Shown: positions 1,829 to 56,454 of the stretch, piece after piece
Numbering within the stretch: the stretch's first letter is position 1
Layout: each line of letters opens with the position of its first letter
Assembly: GCA_032112995.1 (NCBI GenBank)
Contig: DAMCTY010000004.1
Coordinates: forward strand, 27,335 to 91,334
Source: Stenotrophomonas sp.
Lineage (GTDB): Bacteria > Pseudomonadota > Gammaproteobacteria > Xanthomonadales > Xanthomonadaceae
Direction: 5' to 3'
DNA: 64,000 bases
Notes under the pieces: model-generated
Told to the model about the DNA's origin: nothing
The model's input: only the letters and a program-made list of their open reading frames with translations
Database searches by the model: none
Translations under genes and position numbers: made by a program

Positions 1829-1896
1829 GCAACCAGTCCTCCTGAAACAAGCCGTATGGCGGCCATGCCGAAAGACGCGTGCAGCTGCAACGTCAT

Positions 1897-3521: not shown

Positions 3522-3529
3522 GGCAACAA

Positions 3530-5638: not shown

Positions 5639-5769
5639 GGTTGCGGCGCGGTGATTGAGGGATCAGGAGTGGGGATTGGCGTGCAACCCCGCCCGGCGGC
5701 TGTGGGCAGCACTGTGCTGAATCGCCGCGGCTGTCACTTGCCGCTGCGCAGTCGCGACGCCCTGCCAGA

Positions 5770-29622: not shown

Positions 29623-31260
29623 TTACCAGCGTGCGCTGATGCGGAAGTCGGCGCGTACGTTGTCCTGATCCTTCAGCACCTTGTCCAAAGGATGCCCAAG
29701 ATCCAGGCTGTAACTGTAACGCTTGGCGAACTGGCCGTTCAGGCCCATGCCCACGCTGCTCAGGCTGGCAGATGCCGGGAAATCGCCATGCACCTGACCG
29801 CGGTCATAGAACACGTAGACATCATGCGCCTGCCGATAAGGCCGGTGCAGTTCCACACTGCCGTAGTAGCCGCGTACGCCGGACAGGGCACCACGCACGT
29901 AACCACGAACGCTGCCAATGCCACCCACCTGGAACAGGTTGCCCGAAGGCAGGAAATCGCCGTTGCTCAGCTGCCAACCCAACTGCGCACGATACAGGAA
30001 CCCGCTGGCCCCCAAGCGCTGGGTCCAACCGGTTGTGCCGTTGGCGACTGTGAAGCTACGCCCCTGCTTCAGGGCTTCATCTGTACGTATCCGCGAAATG
30101 CCCTGGTAGAACGTCCAATCGTAGCCATCATTGCGATAGCCCGTGTTGACGCCAACCGTGGCGACCGTGGAGTTTGTTTCCGACACGCGGACGTCCGCGA
30201 TGTCCGAGGTGGAATTGCTGCGCGAGATGCTGGCCACCGTGGACAGCAACCAGTTCTGGGTGGCGACCCAAGGCTGGGTATAGTCCAGGCCGTAGTTGGT
30301 TGATTCCCCGGTGATGTCGAGATCGCGGTATGCGCCATCGATGATGTTGATCTGGTTGCGGGAAACACTTACGCCCAAGCGTCCGTTGCGCTTGTTGACG
30401 ATGCCCGAGTACGCCACCCGTCCTTCCAGGCCGCCGCGCGAATAGGCTACCGAGCCGGACAGAAGGTCGTTGAGCCCTGCCAGGCCCCAGAACTGTCCCT
30501 GCACGCCAAAGCGCTCACGACCTGTGCTTTCCACGCCTGAGTTGTCAACGAAAACACCCCAGTTGTGGCGGTCGGGGGACCGCGCCATCAGCACGATATC
30601 GGTCTGCCCCGCAGCCTCGCCCGGCCGCAGCAATGCACGCACCTGCATGTCGCTGGTGCGGTTCAGGTATACCAGATCGTCGCGCAGTTGGTCTGCCTGC
30701 ACCACACCGCCGGCTTCCTGCTTGACACGCCGCAGCACAAACCGCTCTGGAACCCTACCCTCGCCCTCCCCGGTCACCAGCAATCTGCCAAGGCGCCCCT
30801 CCAGCAGGGTGACCACCACGGTACCCCCGGATAGATCCTGCTGCCGCAGAAGTGCTTTGGCAGTAGTCACGCCCTTGGCCTGGTAGGCCGCATTCACCTC
30901 CCCCACCAGCGCATCCAGCTCGGCCATGCTTACCTGCCGCCCCGCGTAATGGCTACGCACAAGCGCCAGCGTCTGCGTATCCAACAGTTCTGACGTCGGC
31001 TCGAAGCGCACGTCCTGAAGGAGGAAGCTCACACCCTCCGCCTTGGCATCGGCCGCCGGTGCCTCCTGCGGCACCGCCTGCAGCGGATCGATGACCGGCT
31101 TGCTCGGTTGCAACGGCTGGCGCTGCTCGTAGTAATCATCGATGCGCTGCGTGGTCTGCCCGCCATCGGTCGGAACCGATTGGGCCATGGCCATGCAGGG
31201 CAGCAGCGCGCCGCCGATCAGAAGCAGGCTTCGATACATCTTCAAATCCCCATGTTTCAT
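29623..31260 (-). CDS. ShlB/FhaC/HecB-type two-partner-secretion outer-membrane transporter (TpsB)
   Basis: Signal peptide (MYRSLLLIGGALLPCMAMAQ), POTRA-like region (LLQDVRFEPTSELL..., VVVTLLEGRLGRLLVTG), and a beta-barrel with the L6 motif FQVGGIGSVRGY and a terminal ...RISARW. The ATG at 31260 overlaps the TpsA stop (TGATG). The ATG at 31239 is an alternative; the track start at 31263 is TTG. Confidence 0.9.
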   Translation of the reverse strand: MKHGDLKMYRSLLLIGGALLPCMAMAQSVPTDGGQTTQRIDDYYEQRQPLQPSKPVIDPLQAVPQEAPAADAKAEGVSFLLQDVRFEPTSELLDTQTLALVRSHYAGRQVSMAELDALVGEVNAAYQAKGVTTAKALLRQQDLSGGTVVVTLLEGRLGRLLVTGEGEGRVPERFVLRRVKQEAGGVVQADQLRDDLVYLNRTSDMQVRALLRPGEAAGQTDIVLMARSPDRHNWGVFVDNSGVESTGRERFGVQGQFWGLAGLNDLLSGSVAYSRGGLEGRVAYSGIVNKRNGRLGVSVSRNQINIIDGAYRDLDITGESTNYGLDYTQPWVATQNWLLSTVASISRSNSTSDIADVRVSETNSTVATVGVNTGYRNDGYDWTFYQGISRIRTDEALKQGRSFTVANGTTGWTQRLGASGFLYRAQLGWQLSNGDFLPSGNLFQVGGIGSVRGYVRGALSGVRGYYGSVELHRPYRQAHDVYVFYDRGQVHGDFPASASLSSVGMGLNGQFAKRYSYSLDLGHPLDKVLKDQDNVRADFRISARW

Positions 31261-34200
31261 CAATTGGGTGCCCCCAGGTTGAGCGCATCCCTGTCCGACG
31301 TGATGACGTCCCCACCGAGGTCGATATCCAGACGCAATTCGGGCGACCGGTCTTCGTAGGCGGGGTCAAGTTGCAACATGCGCCCCATGTAACGCAGGGC
31401 GGCTTCACCGAGATAATTCATGTTGCTGTCGATGTGCTGGTTGTTGTAGTTCGGGCTTGTGATTCGGAACCCATCGTTGAAGCGAACGACGTAGGCATCG
31501 GTATCGAGGTACACACCATCTGCCGACAGGCGGAAGTTGCGGCTGGGCTGCATCAACTGCACATCGTATGGGCGCAACAGCGGGCTGTTGTTGTCCATCA
31601 ACAACTGCATCTGCGGCGTCCGCAGCGTCATGGTGTTTCCGATGTAGCCATTACCAACAGCAACCTTGCCTGCACTCGATGCCAGGTAGGCATCCACCGC
31701 GCCGAGCTGGTCGATCAGCCACGCATCGCGGGGATCAACCTCGACAATCACCTTCCGCGCTACGCCATTGTGATAGCCCGTCAACGTGGTCGTCAGCGGC
31801 CCCGTGCCGTTGGACGACTGCGCCACCTTGGCATCAATCATGTCGGCGGCCAGGCTCAGGCGGGTAGCAACGACGCCTTGCGACAGGCTCAGCTGATCGC
31901 GTGCGGCCAAGCTACCCGATGCGGCCGTCAGCAAACCACCCGTGAGCGATCCGCCCTGTGCATCCATGCTGGCAATCGTGCCAGCCTGCACCCGGTCAAA
32001 CACAATGCTGCCGCCGGAGATGATGGACTGCACTCCACCACTGTGGCCGTCTCCCACAGAAACGTCACTACCGGCCACCAGATCAACATCGCGACCGGCC
32101 ACATAGGCGCCCCAAGCCTGCTTGGCGCCACTGTTACCCACGATATCGACACCAGCGGTTGCGCTGCCGATGTCGATGGCGCCAGCCGCGCCGACCTGCA
32201 ACGAATCACCTGCGTTGGCCGTACCGCCGACCACATCGCTGCCACGGGAGGTCAAAGCCAGGTTGTTGCCTGCCTGTAGCGTATTGAATACAAGCGCGGC
32301 AGTAGATGCCATCTCGACATTGCAACCTGCCATCAACGCGCCGATGGCAATCGTGCCGCCAGCATCGCCGGTGAAGTTGCAGCCTGCCGTTACCTCATCG
32401 GCCTTCAGGTCCTTGCCGGCCACCCAATTGCCATTGGTCCCGATATGCGCCGTGCCCACATCGATGCTCTGGTGCGCATGCAAATTCATGGCGCCAGCGG
32501 TCGATGCCCGGATCATCGTCACGTTGCCGCCGGCCGTGGCCGACAGATCCCCTTCACCGTCGAAGGTGGTCACCGTGGTGTTACCAGCACTGGTCAGCAC
32601 GCTGTTGCCGGTCACGGTCAGCGTGTTGGCGGTCAGGTTATTGCCGGCATTCACCGCCAGCGCCTTGCCAACCACCGCCGTGCCCAGCACCACGTCCGAC
32701 TGTCCATCCAGCGTGGCGTTGCCGGTGACGTTGGCAGTAGCGATGGACAGCGTGTCCACCGCATCGGCCACCAGGTCGCTGCCAGCGCTGAGCTGCTGCA
32801 CATCCAGCGTGCTGCCCGAGGACAGCGTCATGCTGCTGCCGCTGTGCAACGTCGTGGCGGCCAGCGCCGCAGCCGACGTCACATCCAGCGTGCCCTGCGC
32901 CGACAGGCGGCCCAGCGTGCTGCTGCCCGTGCTGGCCAGGGTGGCGTTGCCGCCGACCGTGCCATCGTCCAGCTGCAGGTTGCCACCGGCCCTCAGCGCG
33001 GCGTTGCCATCCACCAGTGCAGTGGTCACGGCCATGTCACTGCCGCTGTCCAGCGAGGCGTTGCCGCCCACGTCCAGCGTATCCACCGTCATCGTCGTGC
33101 CAGCGGTTGCCGTGGCATCGCCGATAACTGCCAACGAGCCGATGGTGCTGCTGCCGGTGCTGGCCAGGGTGGCGTTGCCGCCGACCGTGCCGTCATCCAG
33201 CTGCAGGTTGCCGCCGGCCCTCAGCGCGGCGTTGCCATCCACCAGTGCAGTGGTCACGGCCATGTCACTGCCGCTGTCCAGCGAGGCGTTGCCGCCCACG
33301 TCCAGCGTATCCACCGTCATCGTCGTGCCAGCGGTTGCCGTGGTATCGCCGATAACTGCCAACGAGCCGATGGTGCTGCTTCCGGTGCTGGCCAAGGTGG
33401 CGTTGCCGCCGACCGTGCCGTCATCCAACTGCAGGTTGCCGCCGGCCGTGGTCGACAGGTCCCCTTCACCGTCAAAGGTGGTCACCGTGTTGTTGCCAGC
33501 ACTGGTCAGCACGCTGTTGCCGGTCACGGTCAGCGTGTTGGCGGTCAGGTTATTGCCCGCATTCACGGCCAGCGCCTTGCCGACCACCGCCGTGCCCAGC
33601 ACCACGTCCGACTGCCCGTCCAGCGTGGCATTGCCGGTGACGTTGGCAGTAGCGATGGACAGCGTGTCCACCGCATCGGCCACCAGGTCGCTGCCAGCGC
33701 TGAGCTGCTGCACATCCAGCGTGCTGCCCGAGGACAGCGTCATGCTGCTGCCGCTGTGCAACGTCGTGGCGGCCAGCGCCGCAGCCGAGGTCACGTCCAG
33801 CGTGCCCTGTGCCGACAGGCGGCCCAGCGTGCTGCTGCCCGCGCTGGCCAGGGTAGCGTTGCCGCCCACCGTGCCATCGTCCAGCTGCAGGTTGCCACCG
33901 GCCTTCAGCGCGGCGTTACCATCCACCAGTGCAGTGGTCACGGTCATGTCACTGCCGCTGTCCAGCGAGGCGTTGCCGCCCACGTCCAGCGTATCCACCG
34001 TCATCGTCGTGCCAGCGGTTGCCGTGGCATCGCCGATAACTGCCAACGAGCCGATGGTGCTGCTGCCGGTGCTGGCCAGGGTGGCGTTGCCGCCTACCGT
34101 GCCGTCATCCAGCTGCAGGTTGCCGCCGGCCGTGGCCGACAGATCCCCATCACCATCGAAGGTGGTCACCGCGGTGTTGCCAGCACTGGTCAGCACGCTG

Positions 34201-37200
34201 TTGCCGGTCACGGTCAGCGTGTTGGCGGTCAGGTTATTACCGGCATTCACCGCCAGCGCCTTGCCGACCACCGCCGTGCCCAGCACCACGTCCGACTGCC
34301 CGTCCAGCGTGGCATTGCCGGTGACGTTGGCAGTAGCGATGGACAGCGTGTCCACCGCATCGGCCACCAGGTCGCTGCCAGCGCTGAGCTGCTGCACATC
34401 CAGCGTGCTGCCCGAGGACAGCGTCATGCTGCTGCCGCTGTGCAACGTCGTGGCGGCCAGCGCCGCAACCGACGTCACGTCCAGCGTGCCCTGCGCCGAC
34501 AGGCGGCCCAGTGTGCTGCCGCCGGTGCTGGCCAAGGTGGCGTTGCCGCCTACCGTGCCGTCGTCGAGCTGCAGGTTGCCACCGGCTTTCAGCGCGGCAT
34601 TGCCATCCACCAGTGCGGTGGTCACGGCCATGTCACTGCCGCTGTCCAGCGAAGCATTGCCGCCCACGTCCAGCGTATCCACCATCATCGTCGTGCCAGC
34701 GGTTGCCGTGGCATCGCCGAGCACTGCCAACGAGCCGATGGTGCTGCTGCCGGTGCTGGCCAAGGTGGCGTTGCCGCCCACCGTGCCATCGTTCAGCTGC
34801 AGGTTGCCGCCGGCCCGCAGCGCGGCGTTGCCATCCACCAGTGCGGTGGTCACGGTCATGTCATTGCCGCTGTCCAGCGCGGCGTTGCCGCCCACGTCCA
34901 GCGTATCCACTGTCATCGTCGCGCCAGCGGTTGCCGAGGCATCGCCGAGCACGGCCAACGAGCCGATGGTGCTGCTGCCCGTGCTGGCCAGGGTGGCGTT
35001 GCCGCCCACCGTGGCATCGTCCAGCTGCAGGTTGCCGCCGGCCGTGGCCGACAGATCCCCTTCACCGTCAAAGGTAGTCACCGTGGTGTTACCAGCACTG
35101 GTCAGCACGCTGTTGCCGGTCACGCTCAGCGTGTTGGCGGTCAGGTTATTGCCGGCATTCACCGCCAGCGCCTTGCCGACCATCGCCGTGCCCAGCACCA
35201 CGTCCTGCTGCCCGTCCAGCGTGGCATTGCCGGTGACGTTGGCAGTAGCGATGGACAGCGTGTCCACCGCATCGGCCACCAGGTCGCTGCCAGCGCTGAG
35301 CTGCTGCACATCCAGCGTGCTGCCCGAGGACAGCGTCATGCTGCTGCCGCTGTGCAACGTCGTGGCGGCCAGCGCCGCAGCCGACGTCACGTCCAGCGTG
35401 CCCTGTGCCGACAGGCGGCCCAGCGTGCTGCTGCCGGTGCTGGCCAAGGTGGCGTTGCCGCCCACCGTGCCGTCATCCAACTGCAGGTTGCCGCCGGCCG
35501 TGGCCGACAGATCCCCATCACCGTCGAAGGTGATCACCGTGGTGTTGCCAGCACTGGTCAGCACGCTGTTGCCGGTCACGGTCAGCGCGTTGGCGGTCAG
35601 GTCATTGCCGGCATTCACCGCCAGCGCCTTGCCAACCACCGCCGTGCCCAGCACCACGTCCGACTGTCCATCCAGCGTGGCGTTGCCGGTGACGTTGGCA
35701 GTAGCGATGGACAGCGTGTCCACCGCATCGGCCACCAGGTCGCTGCCAGCGCTGAGCTGCTGCACATCCAGCGTGCTGCCCGAGGACAGCGTCATGCTGC
35801 TGCCGCTGTGCAACGTAGTGGCGGCCAGCGCCGCAGCCGACGTCACGTCCAGCGTGCCCTGCGCCGACAGGCGGCCCAGCGTGCTGCTGCCCGTGCTTGC
35901 CAGGGTAGCGTTGCCGCCCACCGTGCCATCGTTCAGCTGCAGGTTGCCACCGGCCTTCAGCGCGGCGTTGTCATCCACCAGTGCAGTGGTCACGGTCATG
36001 TCACTGCCGCTGTCCAGCGAGGCGTTGCCGCCCACGTCCAGCGTATCCACCGTCATCGTCGTGCCAGCGGTTGCCGTGGCATCACCGATAACTGCCAACG
36101 AGCCGATGGTGCTGCTGCCCGTACTGGCCAGGGTGGCGTCGCCGCCCACCGTGGCATCGTCCATCTGCAGGTTGCCACCGGCCGTGGCCGACAGATCCCC
36201 TTCACCGTCGAAGGTGATCACCGTGGTGTTGCCAGCACTGGTCAGCACGCTGTTGCCGGTCACCGTCAGCGTGTTGGCGGTCAGGTTACTGCCGGCATTC
36301 ACCGCCAGCGCCTTGCCGACCACCGCCGTGCCCAGCACCACGTCCGACTGTCCATCCAGCGTGGCGTTGCCGGTGACGTTGGCAGTAGCGATGGACAGCG
36401 TGTCCACCGCATCGGCCACCAGGTCGCTGCCAGCGCTGAGCTGCTGCACATCCAGCGTGCTGCCCGAGGACAGCGTCATGCTGCTGCCGCTGTGCAACGT
36501 AGTGGCGGCCAGCGCCGCAGCCGACGTCACGTCCAGCGTGCCCTGCGCCGACAGGCGGCCCAGCGTGCTGCTGCCCGTGCTTGCCAGGGTAGCGTTGCCG
36601 CCCACCGTGCCATCGTTCAGCTGCAGGTCGCCACCGGCCTTCAGCGCGGCGTCGCCGCCCACATCCAGCGTATCCACCGTCATCCTCGCGCCAGCGGTCG
36701 CCGTGGCATCGCCGAGCACAGCCAACGAGCCGATGGTGCTGCTGCCGATGCTGGCCAGGACGGCGTTACCGCCTACTGTGCCGTCATCCAGATGCAGGTT
36801 GCCACCGGCCGTCAGCGAGGCGTTGCCGCCCACGTCCAGCGTATCCACCATCATCGTCGTGCCAGCGGTTGCCGTGGCATCGCCGAGCACGGCCAACGAG
36901 CCGATGGTGCTGGCGCCCGTACTGGTAAGGGTAGCGTTGCCGCCTACCACAATCGTATCGGCATCCAAGTCAGCTGTCGTTGTCACCGACAGATCGCCAC
37001 CACTGGTAATGTGGCCTGCCTGCAACGAAACGGCATCTACGACCGCATCTGCACCCGAGATCAACTCGTCGGCGACCAGATTGCCCGAGCTGGACAGAAC
37101 AAGATCTCCCGCCAAGGCATCCAACGTGCTGATGTCTGCACCATTCGGGAAGCTCAGGTAAATGCCGCCAGCGGCGCTGCGCACCAACGCCAACCTCCCA

Positions 37201-40200
37201 ACATCCACGACGACAGGATCGCTGACCAGGCCTACGCCGTTGCCCGCCAACATCTGCGCGCTGACATTGGCACCTCCGGCCACGTTCACCACCGCATCGC
37301 CGTTGCCACGAATGGCGCCAGCTGCATTCAGATCAAGTTGATTGCCCGCTTCACTGCCGCTGACGGCAAGTCGGCCAATGGCAATATCCTTGCCCGACCG
37401 AATCGACACGATCTTGCCAGCGGTGAGGCTGCTCCCGGCCCCCATTGCGTAGTCACCGGCATCAATCAAAACCTGGCTACCCGCTTCCACTACTGCCCCG
37501 GCTCCAATATGGGCAGCCTGCACGGAAAGCAGGCGCAGCACCTCATCCACCTGCGCAGAGCCAAGGCTCAGCTTCTTGCCTGCATTCAGCTGCGCTGACG
37601 CAGCGCGCGTGATCTCACCAACCGCAACATCCCCGTTGGGGGCGCTTACGCTCAAATCGCCAACAGCATCAACCGTTGCGATGTCGACGCCGGTGTATCC
37701 AGTAACGGTGACATCGTCACCCCCTTCAAGCACATCCGCCGTCACTCGGCCCAGGCTGGAGAGCAAACGCAGCTCGCCCCCGGCGGTGATGGTACCGATG
37801 GGCATGTCCGTCTTGCTCGACAACAGCACGCTGCCACCGGCATCAGCCGACAATTGGCCACCGGCGATGATGCGCACGGCAAGGCTTTCACCATTGCTGG
37901 ACTCGTCCCGGATATCACCACTGACCGTCAGCTGGATATCGCGACCGGTGAGGACCGCCACGTCCTTCAGGTAGGAAAGAAGGCCACCGCCCGCAACCGT
38001 CAACACCAGATCCTGGTTGGCATTGACCAGGCCGACACGCAAGTCACCCGCAACCTGCTCAAGCCTTGCATGGTCACCCGCATTTGCAAGCAACAGTGTT
38101 CCATTCACCTGCACACGCAATGGCTGCGTGTCGGTACCGGTGATGCTGCGCAATGCCGAAATGCTGAGGTCCTTGCCGACGCGCAGCGTCGTAGCCGTGT
38201 TACCCGCGACATCGGTGATATTCCCATCGCTGCCGATACGCGCCGACCCGCCGCTACTGAAATGCTTGAATGCCAACGATGAGATCCCGTAAAGGAACGC
38301 ATCCCTGCCAATCGTCGCATCAACACTTCCCTTGGCGTCGATGACCAGCGGCGAATTACTGTTGATCCGCAGCCTGTCAACCGCTGCACCATCACGAACC
38401 TGCTGTGCAGTCAGCACCTTGCCTGTGGCATCGAGCATTTCGACATCACCGGGCGTCGTTGCCAGGCGCATGGCCAGCGCGGTCTCGTCGCTGACATTTC
38501 CATTTTTCAGATCGGCCAGGCTGACGGTGTACTGCTTTTCAAGACGCCCCAGATCCTTGCTCGCGATCAGCGTGATATCGCGTCCCAATACCACGGGATC
38601 CATATTGAGTGCTGACCCGGCGGAAGGCTCCAATGCATTTGCATTGAATATATGCCGCAGCTGATCTTCGTCCCAGTAGGAATCCGTAGCCAGCCCAGCC
38701 AGTATCTGCGCCCTGCGTGCATCTGCAGGACTATTGGAAATATCCGTCAGGCTGTAGCGGTAGTCCTTGTCGTATGACGCAAACGCACCTTCCTGGGCCC
38801 AGTCGCTGCCAAACGCGTCAACGAACACGGCTTCCAGCCGGGCGTAGCGGGCCGCGAGATAGCTCACAACCCCTGCATCATCCAGGCTGCGCCCAGCATC
38901 CATCTCCGCCAGCGAACGGAACAGCGCAATGCCATTCGCACCAGGAACGTAACTGCCGTTGACCACGCCACCCAGTGCCTTCAACTGGTAGTACTCGGCG
39001 TAGCCGGCATCCACCTGGTTCTGATAACTCAAGATGGACTGCTGATCGGCACCTTGGCCCTTGAACAGTTTGAGGTTGTCACGCAGACCCGCCAGTTGGT
39101 CTTCCGAGAGGAAGCTCACATCACCACGCAGCGCCGCATTGAATATGGAGCCTGACGATGCCTGCAACAGTACGTTGCCGGTGGCGGATTCGACCCGGTT
39201 CACCCAGAAATCGCCCGCCGTGTCGTGCAGCCCGATATTGCCATTGGCATACGCCGTGACCAGCCCACCTTCTATCGAAGCATCATTACGCAGGGTTTCC
39301 ACCGCGCGAATCGTCATCACCGAACTGCCGTTGCCGCCGATGGCACCGTTTGCGCTGCGCAGGTCGATATTGCGGCCAACAATCGCCGTACCGGTAGCGA
39401 AGGCACTTGTGATGTTGCCGCGGGCATGCAACCACACGTCGCCAATCCTGCTGCCACGCTGTGCGTTGAGCGACACCTTGGCATCAGAGTCGACATTCAG
39501 CGCGATATCGCCCCCTGCGCTGGCAATGATGTTCCCTGCGGCAACGGTCTTACCCTTGTTGTCCAGATAAGAAACTATCTGGATATCCAGCGGGCTGCTG
39601 CCCACATCCGGCTTGGTCCCGGCAATGGTGCCTATGGTCCGGCCAGCGGACAGGCTCAGCTCGTTGGTAATGATCCTGGCGAATGGCGACGTGCTTTCGA
39701 TATCACCATTGACACTGGTCAGGAACGTCTTTCCGTCGGTGTTCTTCAACACACCGTTGATACGGATCGTCTCACCCGAATCCACGTCCAACAGACCGGC
39801 ATCATTGGTCTTGAACTGGATGGCGATTGGGTTGTCAGCCTTGGCCCTGTTGCTGACAACAAGCGTCCCTGACGTCGGAAATTCGAGATCCCAGTAGGTT
39901 CGCCATGTGCCACCGTCGTCGAACTGGTTCTTCGACGGGAATCCATAGTTGTACCTGCAGCCGTTGCTGTTCTTGCCGCCTTCGCAACGGTAGTTCACCC
40001 CCCAACCAGATCTCCGGGTGTCAAAACTGCCCCTGGTTACCGTCGATTCAAAAACCTTTCCACCAAGGCTGCTGCCGGTACTCGAATATGTCACGCCTGA
40101 CGTTTGCCACTGCTGGCCGTTCTCTACAACCCTTCCGCCAGCATCGATCCAATACCAGTTATCCGCGGTGCCAACACCCTTGTCGTTGAAGGTGACATTC

Positions 40201-43200
40201 CGCTTGATGCGCGCCGTCTGCGTCCACGACGCCACCATGCCGGACCTGGGTGCGTAGGCGTAGCTGCTCGCATCAGCAAGCTTCGTTACCCCAGCCGACT
40301 CCCAGTCTGCGGTATTGATCGCCCCCTGGTAGGCATTGAGCGAACCGTTCGTGTCTTTCACATACCACGTTGTCTTGTTCTGCTCCCTGTCGCGGATGGT
40401 GATCTTGCCCTCCGCACCGGTACCCACGGTGATATCACCCAATTGCAGGCCCATATCCGCCAGCTGGTTGTCGATGACAACCGACCCCTTGCCGCTGATG
40501 ACGTTCAGTGCACCGCTGGTGGAGGTACTGACAATACGGCCGTCCAGGGTGATGGAACCGCCGCCCTTTGCGTAGATATCGGGGACGACAAACTGGTTCC
40601 TGGCCGGGTCGAATTTCAACGCAATCTTCGTCGAAGACGACGAATTGGCCCTCACGAAGCTTTCGGGGACGTCAAACAGTCCAGTGCTTCTCGCCACCCG
40701 TTCGCCGTTCGCGTTTGTGTAGAAGAAACTTTCGACCCAACTGCGGAGCTCGCTGCTATTGCGGTCCAGAATGGCGGAATAGTCCACCGGGACGCCTGAC
40801 GTCAAGGGCACATTGACGTCAATCGTGGCGGCCTTGATGCTGATTCCGCCACCCGCCGTAACCCCCCCTGTACCGGTCTTGGGAACGGTCGAATTTGCCG
40901 CCGACGTCACCTGCGAAGGTTGGGTGGAGAAGGAAGCCACCAGCTCTCTGGCATTCACGACCGGCACATAGTTTGCAGATCCGGTGCTGTATTGTGACAC
41001 CTTGCCGCCGTCGTAGAACAAGCCCTTCAGGTCCGCCTGGGTGCAGTCCTTGTCACCAATCCGATAGCGGCAGGCACCATAGATATAGAGGCTCCCATAG
41101 CCATTGTTGTTGGTGCCCTTGTCGGCGCCTCGATAGAGCAGGTAGTCCGTCAGGGTCTGACCGTTGCGGGCAGCCGCATCCTTGTAGAGGTAGGTGGCAA
41201 TGTAGGCAGCAGCATCGTCCGCATTGGTGATGCCGGCAGCCACGCTCACCCGGTTCCACAACGTGCTTACCAGTGCGCCGCTCCAGTTGCCGGTACCGAG
41301 GTTGTAGACCACGTCTCCGTTCGGAATGTCGACCGAAAGCGACTCAACCTGCTGGGCGCCCGCACCATAGAAGCTGCCCATTGCATTGAAGATTTTCAGC
41401 GCCGCGCCCCTGGCGATGATATCGCCCGCGCCGACGATGGCTGATGCAGCCCCCACGTTGCTGATGGTGACCTTCGCGCCGCCCTGGCCCCTGTCCTCGG
41501 TCACCCGGATGCCTTGGGGAGTGTTGCTCAGGCCGGTGTACAGAACATTGCCACCACTGTAGTCCGGCATCACGATATCGCCAGCCAACAGCAGGTTGTC
41601 CGCGCTGTTGTTGGTGATGCTGATACTCGGCGAGCCCTTGGCAGTTATCGAACCGCTGCCGCTGATGTTGTTTCCGTACAGAATGACGTCGCCACCACCA
41701 GCAAACAGGTCACCAATGACCCAGGTATTGGTGGCCTTGTCAGATGCAACGTCGAAGTCCGTGGAACCGGAGTCATTGAACGCCTTCTTCAGTGCTGCGC
41801 TGCTATCGCGCCATGCCTCGAATTCAAGCAGGTCGCCGCCGCCGGCATCCTTTGTCAACTGGCCATTGCCATCTATGGTGATGTTGAGCTTGCTGTAGCG
41901 CCCGGCCACCACCGTTCCATCGACGATCACATCCCCGGTGTTCGTACCCGAGGTCTTATTGTCACGCACCGTAACCGGGATGAAACCGATCTGGTAGCCC
42001 GTGGCCGAGCCGTCCGCATTGCGGAACACATCATTGCCATAAGCACCCAGCGACACGAATGCGCCACTGAGCAGCTTGCTGTTCTGGGCAAGCGCCGTTC
42101 GAGCAGCACTGTCCACCGTGGAGCGCGCCGAAGAATCCGGAATGGCTACCAGGCCCTTGCTATACCCCAGGGCCACCGCGTTGCCAGCGATCCGCGAGCC
42201 GTTGCCATTCATCCTATCCATGCCAGCGGAGACGTAGGCGTTGTGCAGGGACTCAAGGCTCGCCCCTTCACCCACCTTGACATCCTGGTCCACCTTCAAA
42301 TTGACAGCCGCGTCCGCCTTGCCTACCGCAGCCAGGATGCCCCAGGTATTGACCAGTGCATTGGCACCCACATCGGCCTTGGCATAGGTACCGACGTTGA
42401 GCATGTAATTGCTCTGCAGCTTGGCGTTGGTACCAATAGTGACCTTGTTCACCAGCGTCGCATCGGCCTTGGCCTTGACGACCGCAACGTTGATCGCGCC
42501 ACCGGTGGTCAGACCCGCACGATCATCCGTGTTCGCGTTGGTAGCCGCCACGATATCCAAACCAACGGCATCGCTCCCGGTCGGAGTGCCGCTGGCGTAA
42601 AGCTGGGCGCCGTTGCCAATATCAACAGCACTGCTGCCGGCCAGTATCGTGGAGACCTGGGAGGCACTGCCGGTCAGGACGCCGCCGCCGGCGGCACTGG
42701 CGGCGAGCTTGCCGACGAGAACACTGTCGATATTGTTTTCGGTAGCCAGCCTGATGGAACTGTCCGAGGCAATCCGGGCCTTCTCGCCCACGCTCAGGAT
42801 GACGTCGGCCTGGACGTCATTCTCAGCGTTCGCACCGCTGGCGTTGAGTACGCCCGCACCGGTGCTGTCCGCGCTGGCGCCATATTTGGTGGAGTGCGTC
42901 GCAGTCGCCACAAGCTTGGACACATCCCAGTCAGCCAGGTCCCCGATGGCTACATCCGTTGTGCTCTTGGTTACCGTCCGGGCCAGCGATGCATTGCCGG
43001 CAATCAAGCCGCCAGTGCCCGCCGTGGCATCGGCGGTGTTCTTGTCCTCACCGCGTGCATTGAGCGTGACGGCCCCGGAAATCAGCCGAGTAGCGTCACC
43101 CACCCCTGCATGCACAGTGGAGGCGGATTCGGCGGTGGCCTTCACCACGCCAGCAGCCAGCAACCCGCCCACGCTGACGCCCGTGGCATCAGCGTTCTGG

Positions 43201-46200
43201 GAGCTCACATTGGAGGATGTGACGGTTACCGCTCCGCCGCGTTTATAGGCGCCCGCTACGTCCTCATCGGCAGCGCCAGTCACGCGCGCTCCGTCCATGA
43301 TGTCGGCGCTCACGGCATTGCTGCTCTTGGCGGTTGCAAATGAACCTGCGCCCGCAAGGTACAGACCACCGGAACCAGCAATGGAGCCGGCCTCCACCCC
43401 AGCGCTGGCAACGGAGGCAATCACGCTGACATTGCCTGGATTGCGCAGCTCGGCCTGCGTACCGATGAAGGCATTGACATCGGTCGTTGAGCTTGCGTTT
43501 GCCACCGCCGCGCCAACCGCTGCACCGATTGCAACCGCAGCGCCGATGGCATTGGCTGAAACGTCAGGCCTGGCGCTGGCATTGATCGAAACACCCCCCT
43601 TCAAGCCGGTGACTTTGCTGCGATCGCCAATGCCGGCCGTCACCTCTGAACCATCATGTGCCGTCGCCACCGCGCCGCTGGCCCCGGCAAGCACACCACC
43701 GGCTGCCCCCAACGCCGTTGCATCCACCGCGCCCTCGGAGCGGGCATCTATTGCAAGATTGGCAAAGCCGGTCAGGTTTGTATCTGCTGCCGTGCCGGCG
43801 CTCACACGCGCCGAACGATCCACGTCTGCGACAACCACGCCAGCGGCAAGCGCACCCGCTGCCGCGCCGATGGCGGACAGGTCCACGCTGCTGGCGTCCT
43901 TCGCAGCGACCTTCACGTCCTTGACGGTACCGGCCGACGCCATGGTTCCAGCAATGCCGGCGCTGACCGCCTGTTCCAGCCTGGCCACGCCTACCGCAGC
44001 GCCCACACCAACCAGGCCGAGAGCACCCGCATACACCTCCATATCAACAGCCTTGCCGCCTGCACCGTCGCCGGCATTGGCCTGCACGTCGATCAACGAG
44101 GCATCCACCTTGTCCGCTGCCAACGTAGCGGTGGTATTGCCATACAGCCCGGTGAAACCAAAGGCACCGCCCGCACCCACACCACCCACGCCGACACCAC
44201 CAACCCGGTTGAGGCTGCTCATTGCCGTCGAGGCATTGACCTTCACTTCCGTGGCCGCCAAAGCACCGCCACGAATACTGGCCTCAACCGTATCGCCGCG
44301 CCCGGACAGTGAACCCACATCCAGATTTCCGCGCTTGTTGAGCGCATCCAGATCACTGCTTGAAACCGTGCCCGAACCGGCCAACACGTCGGCGTCAACC
44401 TTGTCTTCCGATGCCACCGACTTCAGGTTGCCGAAGGTACCGCCCAGCTCCTTGCTGGCGTCGCCGCTGTCGCCCAGGCCAGATAGCAGCAGCGAGGCGG
44501 CAGCACCAATGCCAGTGCTCATGCCACCGCCGGCCGTGAGGGTGGTCATGTTGATGTCGCGGTCGGATCTGGCGTCAACAGAAATGCCGTTGGTCGCGGT
44601 TACCCCACTGTCCAGAATATTTGCCCGCACGGTGCTACCGAGGATGGCAATGGAGGCACCCGCGCCCACGCCGGTCCCCATCACACCCAGGCCGAAGCCG
44701 CCGGTGTCGGCGCGCAGCTTGAGTACGTCCTTCGCCGTCACATCGGCGCTGGTCGAGTCCACGGTGGCGTTATGTACGATCGCCTGCGTGTCGTTCTGAA
44801 GCAGGTGCAACTGCGCCATGCCAGCAATGCCGGTACCACCGGCACCTGCCGCCCCCAGCGCGACGCCGTTGAAGTCCGAGCGACTGTCCGCCGATACCTT
44901 CAGCGCATTGGCGACGTCTATCGTGGTTGCGCTGCCCGCCCTGCCAATACCCGCGTAGGTGACCGCACTGCCCATGTTGACCAGCGCGGCTCCGGCCACC
45001 GCAGCCCCCAGTCCCACGGCACCCACGCCGGCAACCAGCGAAGCGGCATTGTCGCTATCGGCCGACACCTGCAACGAGCCGCTGCGTGCCTTGCCGCCAG
45101 CCACCCGCGCTGTCGTATTGGTATTGAAATCATTGACCACCGCCGATGCGGCGCCGCCGCCCAAACCGGCAGCCATACCGATGACGATGGCGAGCGAGTT
45201 CTGGCTGCCAGCTGCATCAACCACCACATCGCCCTTTGCGTTGAGCGTCGCATTGTCGATGGATGCGAGGGCATTGCTGTCAAAGAAGTTCGTCGACAGT
45301 GCACCGGCGCCGGAGAAACCGCCACCGGCAGCCAGCCCGCCGACGTAACTAGTCGACGCCACATGGTGGCTGGCACGCACATCAACGGCCTGCGTTGCGG
45401 CAGCATCGCCCGCATCAGCGTCGTCGCCCGCCGCGCTTGCCAACCCTTGCTGGTTGATTCGTGCATCCTGGATGCTTGCCACCGTGCTGCCGGCAACCTT
45501 GTTGACGGCGGCCATCACGGATACGGCGGCACTTGCGATCGGCACCGTGCCGATCGCCGCACTTGCCCCGATCGTATTGATCTGTTGCGCGGTTGCCGCA
45601 TTCACTGCAACGCCACGCACGCCGACACTACCCGTACTCAGATCCACCGAACTGGACGCCATGTTGTCGGCATCAGTCTCAGTGCTGTGATTGTTCGCGG
45701 TCTTGCGATGCCCCCCATTTACCTGCAGGGCATCCCCCAGCGCCAAGGCCGTCACCTCGGTGTCGCCCCCCCGGATGATGGCCTCCGTCGTGCCGTCAAC
45801 CAGATTGACCACGGTACCCAAACCGATGCCGACGTTGCCGCCCACACCCACGCTACCGGCAAACACGTCAATGCTCTGCCTCTGGGCAGCCATCACGCCG
45901 ACGTTCTCCCGGGCAATGACCTTGGCACCGTCCTCGATCCGCGCCGAGACCGTGCCATCCATCTGGTTCACCGCAATGGAGGCCGCGCCACCAACCGTGC
46001 CGCCCCCGCCAATGCCGGCCGCTACGGTGCGTATACGGTTTCCATTTCCGCCGGCGGCTCCGGACGCATCGGCCTGGACCAGCAGGTTGCGGACACCCAG
46101 ATCCGTCGAATCGCCGCTGACCGATGCCGAGGTGGTGCCTCCAATATTGTTATAGGCGATCGCCGCGCCTACGCCCACGTTGCCGCCGATCGCCGCCCCA

Positions 46201-49200
46201 CCCGCCAGCGAGTCGATGCTGCGCTCATCACTGGCGCTGACGGACACGTCTGCGTCGTCGTTGCGCACGGTGCTGTCCGAAAGCAGCGCCGTTGTATCCG
46301 AAGAGATCAGGTTGGTGGTCACGCTACCGGCAACGCCTACGTTGCCACCGGCGGCACCCGAAGCGGCGATGGTCCGGATCAGGCTTTCGTTACCGGCAAC
46401 AATCTCGAGTTTCGACGCCCCGTCAAGTGCAGAACCGACGACAATCGCCGCGGTACGGCCGCCAATATCATTGACGCTGCTTGCGACGCCAACGCCCACC
46501 TTGCCGCCAGCACCCAGCGCACCACCGAGCGAATAGGCCGCGCCCTTGGTCTGGGCATTCACATGCACATCGCCTGTCACCCCGGCGCCATGCGCGCGGA
46601 CTCCCTCGATACGGGCCTCCGTCGCACCATCCTTGATGATATTGGTGGCGTTGCTTGCCGCGATGGCCGCATCGCCGGCAGCGGCACCGGCGATGGCCAG
46701 GGTCTTGGTGATGGCGTCGGAATCCGCCCTCACTGCGAGCTGCTCGGACACCTCCAATGCCGAGCCATCAATGGCTGCAGCGGTGGTGTCCTTGATGGTC
46801 GCCACGTTGATTGCGGCGCCAATCGCTGCGTTGCCGGTGGTGCCCGCAACCGCACCAGACAACGTGTAGATACGCGAATCGTTGTCCGCCCCAAGCAGCA
46901 GATTCTTTGCTTCCAGCACGCCGCCGTTGAGCGTGGCCTGCGCGGTGTTGCCGATCTCACTCCAGCCCACCGAGCCCTGTACGGCGACATTGCCAGCAAA
47001 GCCGCCAGCCACCGCACCAGACAGGATCTTGGCATTGTTGGCCGCGGAGATCGCGGCATCATCCTGTACTTCCAGCAGCGCATCCTGTGCATTGGCAACC
47101 GTTGTGTTGCCAATGTCGTTGATGGTCAGTGCAGCCCCCACTGCCACCTTGTTGCCTGCGGTCAATGCACCGGCAAGTGAGCCGATGAACGAGTCGTCAC
47201 TGGCATCCAGGCGGACGTCGCGCGCCGCGAGCTCGGCACTGGATCCCGCGCCCTGGGTATCGTGCCCGACGTTTACGGTGGTCTGGTTCTGGATGGCGTT
47301 GTAGGACGCACTGCCGACGCCGGTGAATTTTCCGCTACTGGCACCTACTCCCACGCTGACAGCGATGATCTGCGCGTTGTCGCGGGCAGCCAGATTGATG
47401 TCCCCGTCGTCAGCTCGGATGCTGGCGTCATCCACGGTCACACTGTGGCTGTTCTTGATGGTGTTGTAGGCGAAGGCAACGCCCGCATTGTTGTCACTGG
47501 CCTGCATCATCCCGGCAACGGCAATGATCGAGCTCTTCGCATTGCCATCGCGGCCAATGGCATCCACCTTGGTATCGTCATTGTCGTCGGCGTTGGCTCC
47601 TACGTCCGTATCTGCCAGGCCAGAACCACAGTAGTCAGCACTACCGCCGGTTCCATTGTCTCCATTGCAGTTGTTGCCAGCGCTGCCAAGATCGTCATCG
47701 CTGGCCGTACCTGCATAGGCAGTGAGCGTACCCGCAATATCGATATCGGCGCCGCCAACGATGCGGGCCTCGGTGGTGTTGCCCACCTGGTTGACGAGGA
47801 CAGAACCTGCCAAGCCAATACCGCTGTCACTCTTGGAGGCACCACCAGCCGCAGCTGCGGCCACGATCCGCGAGGCATCTGCGGCGCGCACCGTGACGTT
47901 GTTAAGTTTTTGAACACTGCTGCCATCGATGGCAGCAGTGGTTACATCCTGAACTTCCGCATAGGTTACGGCGGCGCCCACGCCGGCGCGGCCGCCAAAG
48001 TAGAAGGCGCCGCCGCCGTTGGCTATTTTCGACTCGTTGACCGCCAAGATGTCGAGGTCACCAGCAGCCCCCTGCATGCCGGTCAGGGTTCCGCCCTGGA
48101 GCACGGCTTGCGTGCTGTTCTTCGACATGCCCACGGTCGCCGACACCGCCACTGCCGCAGCCTTGGCCTGATCGGTGGATGCATTGACGCCAACGCCCAA
48201 ACCTACGTTGACCTGCTCGCTCTCGTTGCGGGCGGTCAGCACCACATCCTTGGCATCGACGATGGTGGAATCGGTGATCCCAGCCCTCGTGGTGTTCTGT
48301 ATATCGGCGTAGGCGACGCCGCCGGCAATGGAAGCACTGGCTTCCTGCTGCCCCACCACAACCGACAATGCCCCGCTGATGCTTACCAGCAGGGTCTTGT
48401 TGAGGGCAGCCACGTCCAGCTTCAGGCCATTATTGGAGTGATCCTTGATGTTTGCGCTGCTGATATCTGCGGTGGTCTTCTGACGGGCACGGTTGACAGT
48501 TGCGCTACCTGACACCGCAACGCCGAACTTGGGCTTCTGCTCCCCGCCGGCCTGCCCTCCCTGTCCACCGCCATCCTCAGGCTTTCCCGAGCCCAGCAGC
48601 GACTTTGCCTTGTCGAAGTACTTGCCCAAGCCTTCATCGCCGGCCAGGCCAGCCTTCTCGGCCATTCCCTCCAGCTGCCCCACCTTGCCGGTAGCGCGGG
48701 ATTTCAGCTTGTCCAGGAAGCTCGGGTTGTCCGCGCTGCGCTTCTGCGCCGCCGCTTCGCTATCCCCCTGGCCGTACTTGTTGTCCTTGCTGCTGACCAC
48801 GCTGCCAGCTGCGGCAACGGCACCCGACAGGCCTTCGCTGTTCGCCGTCACTTCGAGCACGTCCGTACTGACCGAGCCCTGCTGTGTGCCCGCAGCGCCG
48901 GTAGCGAAGCCATCGGGGATCTGCCCGATGAAGGCGCGTGTATCCGTATCCATCTGCTGGTAGGCCACACTCAAACCCACCGATACGCTCTTGCTCATGG
49001 CTACTGCGCCGGCCACCGACCAGACAAACAGATCCTCGTCGGCACCTATAGCCACCGATTTCGCCACCAGCGAGGCCTTGTTGCTCACCCCGGCCAGCGT
49101 ATGGCTGTCCAGGTCCATGGCAGACGCCGTGCCATTGAGATTGAAGCTACCGCCCTGGCCGCTCTGCAAAGCCAGCGACACCAGGGTTTCCTTGTTGACC

Positions 49201-53086: not shown

Positions 53087-55834
53087 TCAACCGGCCGCCT
53101 TGGCCAACAGCAGCAGACCTTCCACCTTGCGCAACTCTGGCGAACCCTCGACCTGATGGCGCCTGAGCACCACTGCGGCGCGTGCCAACTCTTCCTTGGC
53201 GGCTGCCGGATCGCCAAATTGCAGCAGGGTTTCGGCCAGGCCCAGCCGGTAACCCGCTGTACTCAGGTTGTCCTCACCCAGCAGATGGCTTGCGTACTCC
53301 ACAGCCTGCTGGCGCAGGCGCAGGGCTTGGGCTCCTTCCTGCCGCCGTTGCGCCAATTCGGCGCGCACGCTGGGCAACTCGGCACGCAACTCCGCGGGCA
53401 TTTGGCCGGGAATCTGCGCAAGCAGTTGCTGCGCCTCGTTCAGCCGCCCCTGACCGATCAGCCAGCGGATCCACAACAATCTGACCTCCAGGCGACCCGG
53501 GGCATCGGCAGGCAGTGCCGCGGCCAATCCCTGGTCAGCATGGGCGATGTGCCCCCCCGCTTCCTCGGCCCGACCCAACCGCATCAGGATGCGCCCCATG
53601 CCCGTCTCGGCGCGCAGCGCCGTGGGTGAACTCGCCCCCAACTGACTGCTGCGGATTGTCCAGGCCTGGCGGTACATCCGGTAGGCCTGCGGCAGATCAC
53701 CGCGCAGCTCATAAAGAGAGCCATGATTGAACAGCCCCATCGAGTATCCGACGGACGTTTCGCCATCAATCGCAGCACTCAAGCGTTGCCGTTCGCGGAA
53801 CTGCTGTTCGGCGGCATCAAGATCCCCCATGTCGACGTACAGATCGGCAAGCGCATCATGCTGGGCCAGCATGAAGCCATTCTTGGCACCATACAGCCCC
53901 AATGCCTGCTGCTGCCCACGCTGCAACAATGCCAAGGCCTCGTTGAACTTGCCCTGCTCACGAAGTATCTGCGCCAGGTGAAGTTCAACGGTCAGGCTCA
54001 TGCTGGTGCGTCGACCATGCAGGCCCGCAAGTACCTGACGAAAGGCCTTTTCAGCCTCAGGTTGGTGGCCCCAACGCAGGTACATGAGACCCTGGTTGTA
54101 AAGCAGCTCATGCAACCGACCATCTTCGGGAGACAGATGGGAGACGCCATACAGGCGCTGTGCCTGCTCGAAATCCTGTTCCGCCGCATCAAACCGCTGC
54201 TGGCTCACCAGCGCCAGCGCTCTTGCCGCATGCAGCTTCGCCCGCACATCGCCCACCTCCCGCGCGGAGCCCAGCAGGACCAAGCCACGATCCGCAAGCT
54301 GCTGGCCCTGCGCACCGTTGCCGGCAGAAGTTTTCAAACGCGACAGATTGGCCAACACCCCTGCAGCATCCACCGGCCGGGCAACATCCGCACGCATGAA
54401 GCCTTCATAAGCCTGCTGCAGATTGCGCTCGGCCTCCATCGCCATGCCGGAGTTCTGGTAAGCCTGCCCGAGCACGGACTGCATCCTCGCCAACTGCCCA
54501 GGTGCATCCCGCAATTCACTGCCCACCTGCAAGGCAGCCTTGTCCAGCAACTGACGCGAGCTGAGCTCCTCCTGGCCGCGTTCGGTGCGCAGGAACGGAT
54601 CGGCGGTCTCAAACACGCCAATCATGAAATTGCTGACCTGCTGTGCGATTGCCGCCTCTTCTCGCGCCTGCCGGCGGCTCTGCACCAGCCCAAGGATGAA
54701 CAGCAGCAGCAGCGCAACCAGACCCAGGCCTGCGGCAAGTGCGCGCCAGTTGCGCCGCATGCGCTTGCCGAGCTGATACAGGCGCCCACCTGATCGTGCC
54801 ACCACCGCGCGCTTGTCCAGGTATCGGCGCAGATCGGCACGCAAGGCCTCCACCGAGCGATAGCGCTGCCTGGCATCCAACGCGCAGGCACGCGCCGCAA
54901 TGGCATCCAGATCACCCTTGAGATTTCTTCGCCACGCCAGGCCTTCGGCGGCGTTCTGGCTCGGCAACACCACCGGCACATCCACGTCCTGCGGCTCGCG
55001 CACGCATGGATGATCGGACAGCATCTCGACGAGCATCACGCCAAGGCTGTACACGTCACCCGCAGCACCCACTGTCTCACCACGGATCAACTCCGGGCTG
55101 GCATAGCTGGGTGTGCAATAGCCCGCGTCCGGCTTCGCGCGCGCCTCGTTGAGGATGCGGGCCAGGCCGAAATCCAGCAGTACCGGTTGGCCGCCAGGCA
55201 ACACCAGCACATTGGATGGCTTCAGGTCACAGTGCAGCACCAACTGCTCATGCGCGGCCTGTACCGTTGCGCATATCTCCAGAAACAGCAGTATGCGTTC
55301 ACGCAGCCCCAATCCACGCTGCTCGCACCAATTGTCCAGGCTGATGCCGTCGATGTACTCCATCACCAGATAGGGATGGCCCTCAGGCGTGGTGCCGCCG
55401 TCATAAAGCCGGGCAACATTGGGCAATTGCAGGTCTGCCAACACCTGCCGCTCCATACCCAAGCGTTCGACCTCGCCCTGGCCTGGCAGACCGTGCAGCA
55501 ACTTGATCGCGACCGTGCGCTGGTACAGACCATCGGCACGCTCAGCCTTGAACACCGTGCCCATGCCTCCCTGCGCAATACGCGCAGTCAGCCGCCACGG
55601 TCCAACCCGTTCGCCCACACCGAATTCCGGCGCCAGTGCCCGCGCCAATACCGTGTCCAGCCGGTTGCTGACCCTGCTCAGGCCCACGGTCTGTGAGCGC
55701 AGCAGCTGCAGCACCTCCTCGCGGATGTCCGCATCATCGCAAGCCGTTACCAGCGCCTGCTGCCATTGTTCACGCGGCAGCTCGCTGGTCGCATCGAACA
55801 GCTCCCTTACCTTGCGCCAGCGCTCCTCGGCCAT
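53087..55834 (-). CDS. membrane Ser/Thr protein kinase with large C-terminal TPR region
   Basis: ATG at 55834 (the track start at 55885 is GTG and overlaps the sigma gene). Hanks motifs: GGMGTVFKA, VAIKLL, HCDLKPSNVLV, DFGLA, YASPE. One TM (ALAAGLGLVALLLLFILGLV, ~54683-54745) followed by ~530 aa of TPR-like repeats. Confidence 0.88.
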   Translation of the reverse strand: MAEERWRKVRELFDATSELPREQWQQALVTACDDADIREEVLQLLRSQTVGLSRVSNRLDTVLARALAPEFGVGERVGPWRLTARIAQGGMGTVFKAERADGLYQRTVAIKLLHGLPGQGEVERLGMERQVLADLQLPNVARLYDGGTTPEGHPYLVMEYIDGISLDNWCEQRGLGLRERILLFLEICATVQAAHEQLVLHCDLKPSNVLVLPGGQPVLLDFGLARILNEARAKPDAGYCTPSYASPELIRGETVGAAGDVYSLGVMLVEMLSDHPCVREPQDVDVPVVLPSQNAAEGLAWRRNLKGDLDAIAARACALDARQRYRSVEALRADLRRYLDKRAVVARSGGRLYQLGKRMRRNWRALAAGLGLVALLLLFILGLVQSRRQAREEAAIAQQVSNFMIGVFETADPFLRTERGQEELSSRQLLDKAALQVGSELRDAPGQLARMQSVLGQAYQNSGMAMEAERNLQQAYEGFMRADVARPVDAAGVLANLSRLKTSAGNGAQGQQLADRGLVLLGSAREVGDVRAKLHAARALALVSQQRFDAAEQDFEQAQRLYGVSHLSPEDGRLHELLYNQGLMYLRWGHQPEAEKAFRQVLAGLHGRRTSMSLTVELHLAQILREQGKFNEALALLQRGQQQALGLYGAKNGFMLAQHDALADLYVDMGDLDAAEQQFRERQRLSAAIDGETSVGYSMGLFNHGSLYELRGDLPQAYRMYRQAWTIRSSQLGASSPTALRAETGMGRILMRLGRAEEAGGHIAHADQGLAAALPADAPGRLEVRLLWIRWLIGQGRLNEAQQLLAQIPGQMPAELRAELPSVRAELAQRRQEGAQALRLRQQAVEYASHLLGEDNLSTAGYRLGLAETLLQFGDPAAAKEELARAAVVLRRHQVEGSPELRKVEGLLLLAKAAG

Positions 55835-55860: not shown

Positions 55861-56454
55861 CTAACGCAGCTGCCGATTCAACCACGCCCGCGCGAAGCGC
55901 AGGTCACGGTCAACGGTTGGCGCGGACACGCCCAGCACCAGGGCGATCTCATCACGCTGCATGCCGCCGAAGTACGTCAGCTCGATCGTGCTCGCCGCAC
56001 GCGGCTCCATTTCGGCCAACTGATTCAACGCCTGGTGCAGGGCCAGCACGTCATAGCCGATATTGCTCTCTTCATAGGCCTGATCGGCGTGCGACAACGT
56101 CAGTTGCTCTACCCCGGCGCCGCGCTTGCCGGCAGCCCGGGCGCGCAGGTGGTCGACCAGCACCGACCGCATCTTCAGCGCGGCGATGGCCACGAAATGG
56201 GTGCGATCCTTGTACTCGGCGTCACTGCCGAGCAGGCGCATCAAGGACTCGTTGACCAGAGCTGCGGGCTGCAGGGTACCGTTGGTCTGCTGGGACAGAC
56301 GGTTGCGGGCAAGCTGCATCAGGTCCGAATACATGGCTTCGAACAAGTGCTCGCGCGCCTGCATGTCGCCTTGCTGCCAGCGATGCAGGAGTTGGGTGAT
56401 CTGCTGCCTGCTCAATGCTGCTCCCGCGTAACGGCCTGTGCCCCGTCCGGCCAA
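55861..56454 (-). CDS. ECF-type RNA polymerase sigma factor (Sigma70_ECF / kinase-associated type)
   Basis: Motifs: ITQLLHRWQQGD..A...L, HFVAIAALKMRSVLVDHLRARAAGKRG, and region 4 IALVLGVSAPTVDRDLRFARAWL. There is no in-frame ATG before ITQLL. Candidate starts are TTG at 56454 (track) or TTG at 56415, the latter preceded by GGGAG 5 nt upstream and preferred by me. Confidence 0.82.
   Translation of the reverse strand: MAGRGTGRYAGAALSRQQITQLLHRWQQGDMQAREHLFEAMYSDLMQLARNRLSQQTNGTLQPAALVNESLMRLLGSDAEYKDRTHFVAIAALKMRSVLVDHLRARAAGKRGAGVEQLTLSHADQAYEESNIGYDVLALHQALNQLAEMEPRAASTIELTYFGGMQRDEIALVLGVSAPTVDRDLRFARAWLNRQLR

Follow-up and report, generated by a model that had tools for sequence, protein, structure and literature searches.

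A giant exoprotein gene of Stenotrophomonas assigned to the LktA family of two-partner secretion adhesins

Background

In two-partner secretion (TPS), an exoprotein (TpsA) is exported by Sec, docks on the POTRA domains of its partner TpsB, is threaded through the TpsB barrel and folds outside the cell as a beta-solenoid (PMC5422565). According to the 2017 TPS review, published TpsA sizes range from ~100 to 650 kDa (PMC5422565). FhaB/FHA of Bordetella and other classical TpsA adhesins have a signal peptide, a TPS domain, an extended beta-helical shaft of 19-residue periodicity, a conserved C-terminal part and a POTRA-bearing Omp85-type partner (PMC5422565). These features have counterparts in the protein described here, where the signal peptide and the beta-helical shaft are predictions. 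The latter protein differs from classical FHA in that its TPS domain carries FxxPxG instead of NPNG, is borderline on the TIGR01901 model and comes without any Fil_haemagg match; it is also about twice as long as FhaB. Proteins of the CdiA group are of comparable size and likewise form a long filament.

The window analysed in this study is a stretch of 64,000 nucleotides of a Stenotrophomonas sp. contig (DAMCTY010000004.1, assembly GCA_032112995.1). It encodes a TpsA whose N-terminal domain and repeat type are, by the NCBIfam models, those of LktA of Fusobacterium necrophorum, an anaerobic animal pathogen and in this respect unlike the host of the window. LktA is 3,241 aa long, about half the length of the TpsA of the window. 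It is secreted by two-partner secretion, and this name-giving member of the family acts as a leukotoxin rather than as an adhesin (10.1101/534297). The lktBAC genes are ordered B-A-C, as opposed to A-B in the window.

Results and discussion

The tpsA gene and its product

In the ORF listing of the window, 31260..52139 on the minus strand is one ORF. Translated from the ATG at 52073, which has a GGAG ribosome site 8 nt on its 5' side, it yields 6,937 aa with the terminal stop as the only one; the stop-free frame of 6,937 codons reported in an earlier reading of the sequence alone (hereafter the sequence-only reading) is thus borne out. In-frame GC3 is comprised between 0.60 and 0.90. The product has a computed mass of 684 kDa, at or marginally above the published TpsA range, and a pI of 4.4. 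Its architecture comprises, in this order, a TPS domain, LktA repeats, a core, a helical module, a 19-aa solenoid with cassettes and a terminal domain (Table 1).

The ten cysteines of the protein are all arranged in five close pairs, a pattern suggestive of local disulphide loops such as a secreted protein may have. These pairs are found at aa 306/313, 1469/1482, 3668/3677, 4030/4039 and 6565/6584, with spacings of 7-19 residues.

Table 1. Features of the tpsA-tpsB locus (positions in the window; aa numbering of TpsA)
Feature	Position	Strand	Basis or remark
ECF sigma factor, candidate regulator	55861..56415	-	
Ser/Thr kinase with TPR repeats, candidate regulator	53087..55834	-	
SapC-family gene	52179..52934	-	PF07277 7.9e-71; 105 bp upstream of tpsA
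tpsA, giant LktA-family exoprotein gene	31260..52073	-	6,937 codons + TGA
Sec signal peptide, predicted (aa 1-48)	51930..52073	-	hydropathy; cleavage site inferred
TPS secretion domain, FxxPxG variant (FVDPHG), aa 60-297	51183..51896	-	PF05860, NF012204, TIGR01901
LktA-type degenerate ~53-aa repeats, aa ~460-3140	42654..50696	-	NF012206, iterated HMM, periodicity
Non-repetitive aromatic-rich core, aa 3141-4329, two local Cys pairs	39087..42653	-	conserved, no family model
Helical module, aa 4330-4560	38394..39086	-	phmmer; helices at AF2 model residues 525-682
Unique-sequence solenoid, 19-residue period, aa 4561-5043	36945..38393	-	autocorrelation peak at 19
Cassette array, aa 5044-6515	32529..36944	-	4.4 kb of repeat units
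C-terminal solenoid segment, aa 6516-6759, 19-aa period, one Cys pair	31797..32528	-	
Conserved terminal domain, aa 6760-6937	31263..31796	-	relatives' C-termini
tpsB, ShlB/FhaC-type outer-membrane transporter, 545 aa	29623..31260	-	POTRA_2, ShlB, VRGY

Signal peptide, TPS domain and LktA repeats

Judged from hydropathy, the N-terminus displays a long charged n-region followed by hydrophobic residues over aa 28-44, with a putative cleavage site after AWA, before a further A. When aa 1-330 were scanned alone, the Pfam TPS model PF05860 matched aa 60-297 with 50.0 bits (cut-off 33.5, E = 4.9e-13), which places the TPS domain near the gene start, where it had been proposed to lie. The NCBIfam model NF012204 ("adhes_FxxPxG, leukotoxin LktA family filamentous adhesin") reached 126.2 bits (cut-off 60, E = 1e-36); the score of the classical NPXG model TIGR01901 was borderline (31.2 bits for a cut-off of 29.1).

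The region that follows was recognised by NF012206 ("LktA_tand_53") in 15 stretches, at 270.4 bits (cut-off 50, E = 3.7e-82). Iterating an HMM on TpsA itself recovered ~40 repeat copies from aa ~460 to ~3010, and the autocorrelation of the region peaks at 53-54 aa. The sequence-only reading had described here degenerate repeats of the form G.G.A...N.I...T.A.I; this description of their kind agrees with the observed period, their length being ~8 kb and not 9 kb. The repeat peptides it quoted as examples are exact, and so are the coordinates of the two charged linkers that it placed within the repeats (50169-50240 and 48528-48587). It had moreover suggested the LktA family. The scores of both NCBIfam models above their cut-offs, the 53-54 aa period and the name given by NCBI to the orthologues confirm this suggestion. 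By its sequence, TpsA is thus a member of the LktA-family two-partner secretion adhesins.

The core and the helical module

An aromatic-rich core of lower GC content had also been anticipated, and was found: over ~42.1-38.6 kb, aromatic residues make up 7-13% of the sequence versus 0-4% elsewhere, with a GC content of 0.58-0.59. In our profile scans, no Pfam or NCBIfam family covers the stretch from aa ~3150 to 6937. In a per-segment phmmer scan, the helical module was the segment recovered in the largest number of relatives. PDB sequence searches with the N-terminus, the core, the C-terminus and a core profile returned no match.

Using 18 aligned relatives, we modelled aa 3800-4565, corresponding to part of the core and the helical module, with AF2 (pLDDT 79.5). 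The model is mostly beta: it shows domains rich in beta-strands, among them a long hairpin, a succession of short strands that looks like a solenoid by DSSP, and a bundle of helices. The Cys pair 4030/4039 sits in a low-confidence loop of this model. Foldseek searches with it against PDB and BFVD gave nothing convincing, the best E-values being 0.4 and 0.17, respectively. In the core alignment, the invariant columns are mostly Gly, together with one Asp, and include no His, Ser, Cys or Lys. This absence of conserved catalytic-type residues speaks for a module with a structural or binding function rather than for an enzyme, and the hypothesis of an enzyme-bearing core was rejected on this ground.

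These searches also bear on whether TpsA might act as a cytolysin or leukotoxin-like protein, damaging the membranes of eukaryotes, for instance those of amoebae, fungi or plants. Both NCBIfam models place it in the LktA family, which speaks for such an activity, the archetype LktA being a T5b-secreted leukotoxin that acts on leukocytes (10.1101/534297). However, the family models span the TPS domain and the repeat only and include no toxic module, NCBI itself calls the family "filamentous adhesin", and neither Pfam, NCBIfam, PDB sequence search nor Foldseek detected a pore-forming or enzymatic domain. We therefore hold a cytolytic role to be improbable and favour an adhesive or cell-contact fibre.

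The 19-residue solenoid and the cassette array

Downstream of the helical module, the 19-residue period extends through aa 4561-5043 and again through aa 6516-6759, on both sides of the cassette array. The repeats of this part had been called "FHA-like" in the sequence-only reading. This designation does not hold, since the 19-residue period is all they have in common with FHA: Fil_haemagg and Fil_haemagg_2 did not match at E<=0.01 over the whole TpsA, and FHA repeat models gave no match at E<=1 in ten tiles covering the protein outside aa 1251-3249 and 5101-6479.

The array is built from units of 152, 76 and 57 aa, every one a multiple of 19 aa, which follow each other in the order 57, 57, 152, 76, 152, 152, 76, 76, 152, 76, 152, 76, 76 and 152 aa, the last 152-aa unit merging into the C-terminal region. 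Copies share 91-98% DNA identity, with exact repeats of up to ~310 bp, and the GC3 of the array is higher than that of the rest of tpsA (0.83-0.90 vs 0.60-0.79). The only matches of the profile scans in the C-terminal half fall in the cassettes and are weak, of beta-helix type (DUF3737, DUF5649, FwdC). Between species, the protein identity of the cassettes drops to 38-68%. Being far more alike within the genome than between species, they point to concerted evolution or recent amplification.

Inside the array, at 32122-37598, the plus strand has two long antisense reading frames (1,679 and 1,717 aa). Coding on that strand was considered and rejected, long ORFs being there a by-product of GC-rich repeats.

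Array length across assemblies and species

The tpsA locus is present at 98-100% identity in at least 10 other assemblies. At least 9 contigs of the same species terminate in or at the array, and calls of 5,943, 5,261 and 5,063 aa correspond to contig-end truncations at this place. N-gaps interrupt the array in GCA_002469325.1 and in JGI 3300011897; they break the true frame, so that in GCA_002469325.1 the gene caller took antisense ORFs instead. Assembly GCA_032100465.1 gives the same 6,937-aa call as the window. Finally, the ENA contig k141_47450, from a 98-99% identical strain, carries an intact gene of 5,930 aa, in frame and shorter by 3,021 nt (53×19 codons). Irrespective of the assembly, we confirmed that tpsA is a real, intact giant ORF.

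How far the figure of 6,937 aa is itself a product of assembly is a separate matter. The array could have been mis-ordered, expanded or collapsed, the true protein measuring ~5,900-7,000 aa. The ~310-bp exact repeats, the contigs stopping at the array, the N-gaps and the shorter gene of k141_47450 all argue in this direction, and they make the exact figure dependent on the assembly. Against it, a second assembly reaches the same length, two gapped scaffolds match the cassette order of the window over 2.0-2.5 kb at 99.5% identity, the 2-9% divergence between cassettes provides anchors, and arrays of this size are present in orthologues. On balance, we consider an assembly artefact doubtful but worth bearing in mind.

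Between species, the array region varies from ~230 to 1,590 aa, the ~1,470 aa of the window being among the longest. The 456-bp cassette is absent from PUT21 and present in ~3 copies in S. humi and in ~9 copies in one MAG. We therefore regard the array as real and specific to lineages, with a variable copy number whose exact value in the window is uncertain. The 4.4-kb array of near-identical cassettes announced by the sequence-only reading is real at 36944-32529, with the same reservation on its copy number.

The C-terminal region, the partner gene and the neighbourhood

After the array, 422 aa remain. This region had been delimited at ~410 aa and described as unique; the region stands, its uniqueness does not. 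Its final ~180 aa recur as a conserved domain that closes many proteins of the family, with 0-59 aa left to the C-terminus in every relative that has it. Between species the C-terminus is 54-64% identical, like the remaining protein. A single-sequence AF2 model of the C-terminal 458 aa reached a pLDDT of 42 and was kept out of the fold search.

The stop codon of tpsA overlaps the start of tpsB in a TGATG junction, the ATG of tpsB sharing the A of the tpsA TGA; the same overlap is kept in Stenotrophomonas sp. PUT21. TpsB contains POTRA_2 (3.7e-14), ShlB (1.1e-24) and Omp85 (2.7e-07) domains as well as VRGY motifs. Its start is ambiguous between the ATG at 31260 (545 aa) and the RefSeq ATG at 31239 (538 aa), which has GGGGA upstream. 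The identification of tpsA as encoding a TPS exoprotein was upheld by the 50-bit PF05860 match and by this adjoining TpsB with its POTRA_2 and ShlB domains.

Upstream of tpsA, no terminator was predicted between the sigma factor, kinase, SapC and tpsA genes. The sole strong terminator (56589-56562) and the sole site resembling a promoter (56506-56478) both lie upstream of the sigma gene. From this arrangement, sigma factor, kinase, sapC, tpsA and tpsB may possibly constitute a five-gene unit regulated by the sigma factor and the kinase. The locus sits among housekeeping genes of the chromosome: one flank carries tol-pal, queE and queC, the other recQ, hrpA and relA. Neighbouring proteins have exact matches among RefSeq "Stenotrophomonas sp." entries.

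In its great size and its distinct C-terminal region, TpsA recalls CdiA, the proteins of that group reaching 650 kDa (PMC5422565), and it could by analogy deliver a C-terminal toxin into neighbouring bacteria. Unlike CdiA, however, it has neither a VENN or related pre-toxin motif, searched for over TpsA, nor a polymorphic C-terminal toxin, its C-terminus being conserved as described above. There is no immunity gene either: tpsB begins on the stop codon of tpsA and the next gene, recQ, is on the other strand. The gene order A-B also departs from the cdiB-A-I arrangement. We rejected the contact-dependent inhibition toxin reading on the missing motif, the missing immunity gene and the conserved C-terminus, and deem a CdiA-like effector very improbable; an adhesive or cell-contact fibre is again preferred.

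Relatives of TpsA

An exhaustive HMMER search with aa 3400-4599 retrieved 200 cluster representatives. The best matches are 5,446-6,449 aa long and have the core at about the same position; so does one representative of 4,883 aa that lacks the C-terminal modules. Mapping the modules of the window onto the relatives showed that their order is common to them. As in the window, orthologues of the LktA family possess an FxxPxG TPS domain followed by ~3,000 aa of 53-aa repeats, then the core, the helical module and the terminal domain in identical order. NCBI applies the name "leukotoxin LktA family filamentous adhesin" to proteins of Luteimonas, Pseudoxanthomonas koreensis, Lysobacter and a Halanaerobiales MAG; orthologues include those of Luteimonas sp. 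e5 (WP_456995453.1, 6,102 aa), P. koreensis (WP_162433759.1, 5,852 aa) and Lysobacter sp. (WP_324908325.1, 5,445 aa).

We also scanned genomes with a 3-sequence alignment as query, a search that did not return the window's own species. It detected orthologues in S. humi, S. rhizophila, Stenotrophomonas spp. TWI273 and PUT21 (the latter on a complete chromosome) and two MAGs; they are collinear with the window and share 52-70% identity in each module. The frame is open across each of these loci, and in the Stenotrophomonas orthologues the same overlapped tpsB follows. By adding ~466 aa upstream of each locus, we estimated total lengths of ~5,700-7,000 aa. Identity to members outside Stenotrophomonas is only 33-48%. 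A more distant relative is found on the chromosome of the alphaproteobacterium Qipengyuania sp. DGS2-2 (locus L023, 26-15391), where a gene of ~5,100 aa with 28% core identity precedes an ORF of 633 aa. Xanthomonadales are thus not the only group with the giant architecture.

The sequence-only reading had noted that the protein is roughly twice the size of a classical FHA. The size is indeed unusual relative to FhaB, but it is ordinary for the subfamily, whose members run from 5.4 to 7.0k aa.

Proposed role of the fibre

A TPS domain of FxxPxG type, an overlapped cognate TpsB and a collinear, conserved architecture are shown by our analysis. We conclude that the tpsA product is likely a type Vb TpsA of the LktA family, with surface adhesion or a cell-contact fibre as its function. 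Five cysteine pairs, a pI of 4.4, a hydrophobic N-terminal stretch and the 53- and 19-aa periods all support a secreted fibre. By analogy with described systems, the precursor would be exported by Sec, its TPS domain would dock on the POTRA domains of TpsB, and the chain would thread through the TpsB barrel to fold outside the cell as a very long beta-solenoid fibre. This fibre would be composed of ~2,700 aa of 53-aa LktA repeats and then ~2,200 aa of 19-residue coils. At ~4.8 A per coil, its length should exceed 100 nm.

Within such a fibre, the core and the helical module would lie midway and may be the likeliest ligand-binding part, acting as a functional head. The cassette array could act as a copy-number-variable spacer altering the length of the fibre in steps of 19 aa, and the terminal domain probably governs its retention or release.

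Conclusions

The family is already named and orthologues are annotated in RefSeq; a full-text literature search on that name brought up no paper of relevance. Modestly new are only the conserved half that lacks annotation and the variable array, and the finding leaves the understanding of type V secretion as it was. With its product of ~684 kDa, the locus adds a clearly bounded case to the largest TpsA proteins. It is instructive in practical terms as well: short-read assemblies break at the array, and on gapped scaffolds a gene caller put spurious antisense ORFs in place of the real gene.

About half of each giant LktA-family protein is conserved and has neither a Pfam or NCBIfam model nor a solved structure, which makes it a reasonable structural target. 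It comprises the ~1,200-aa core, whose predicted fold is confident and lacks a structural neighbour, together with the helical module and the always C-terminal domain of ~180 aa. Tentatively, this C-terminal half might define a distinct and widespread subfamily of giant TpsA proteins with a new binding or function module, the cassette array serving as a length switch. If this is true, the fast-evolving array, kept in a 19-aa register, would tune the distance of the module from the cell.
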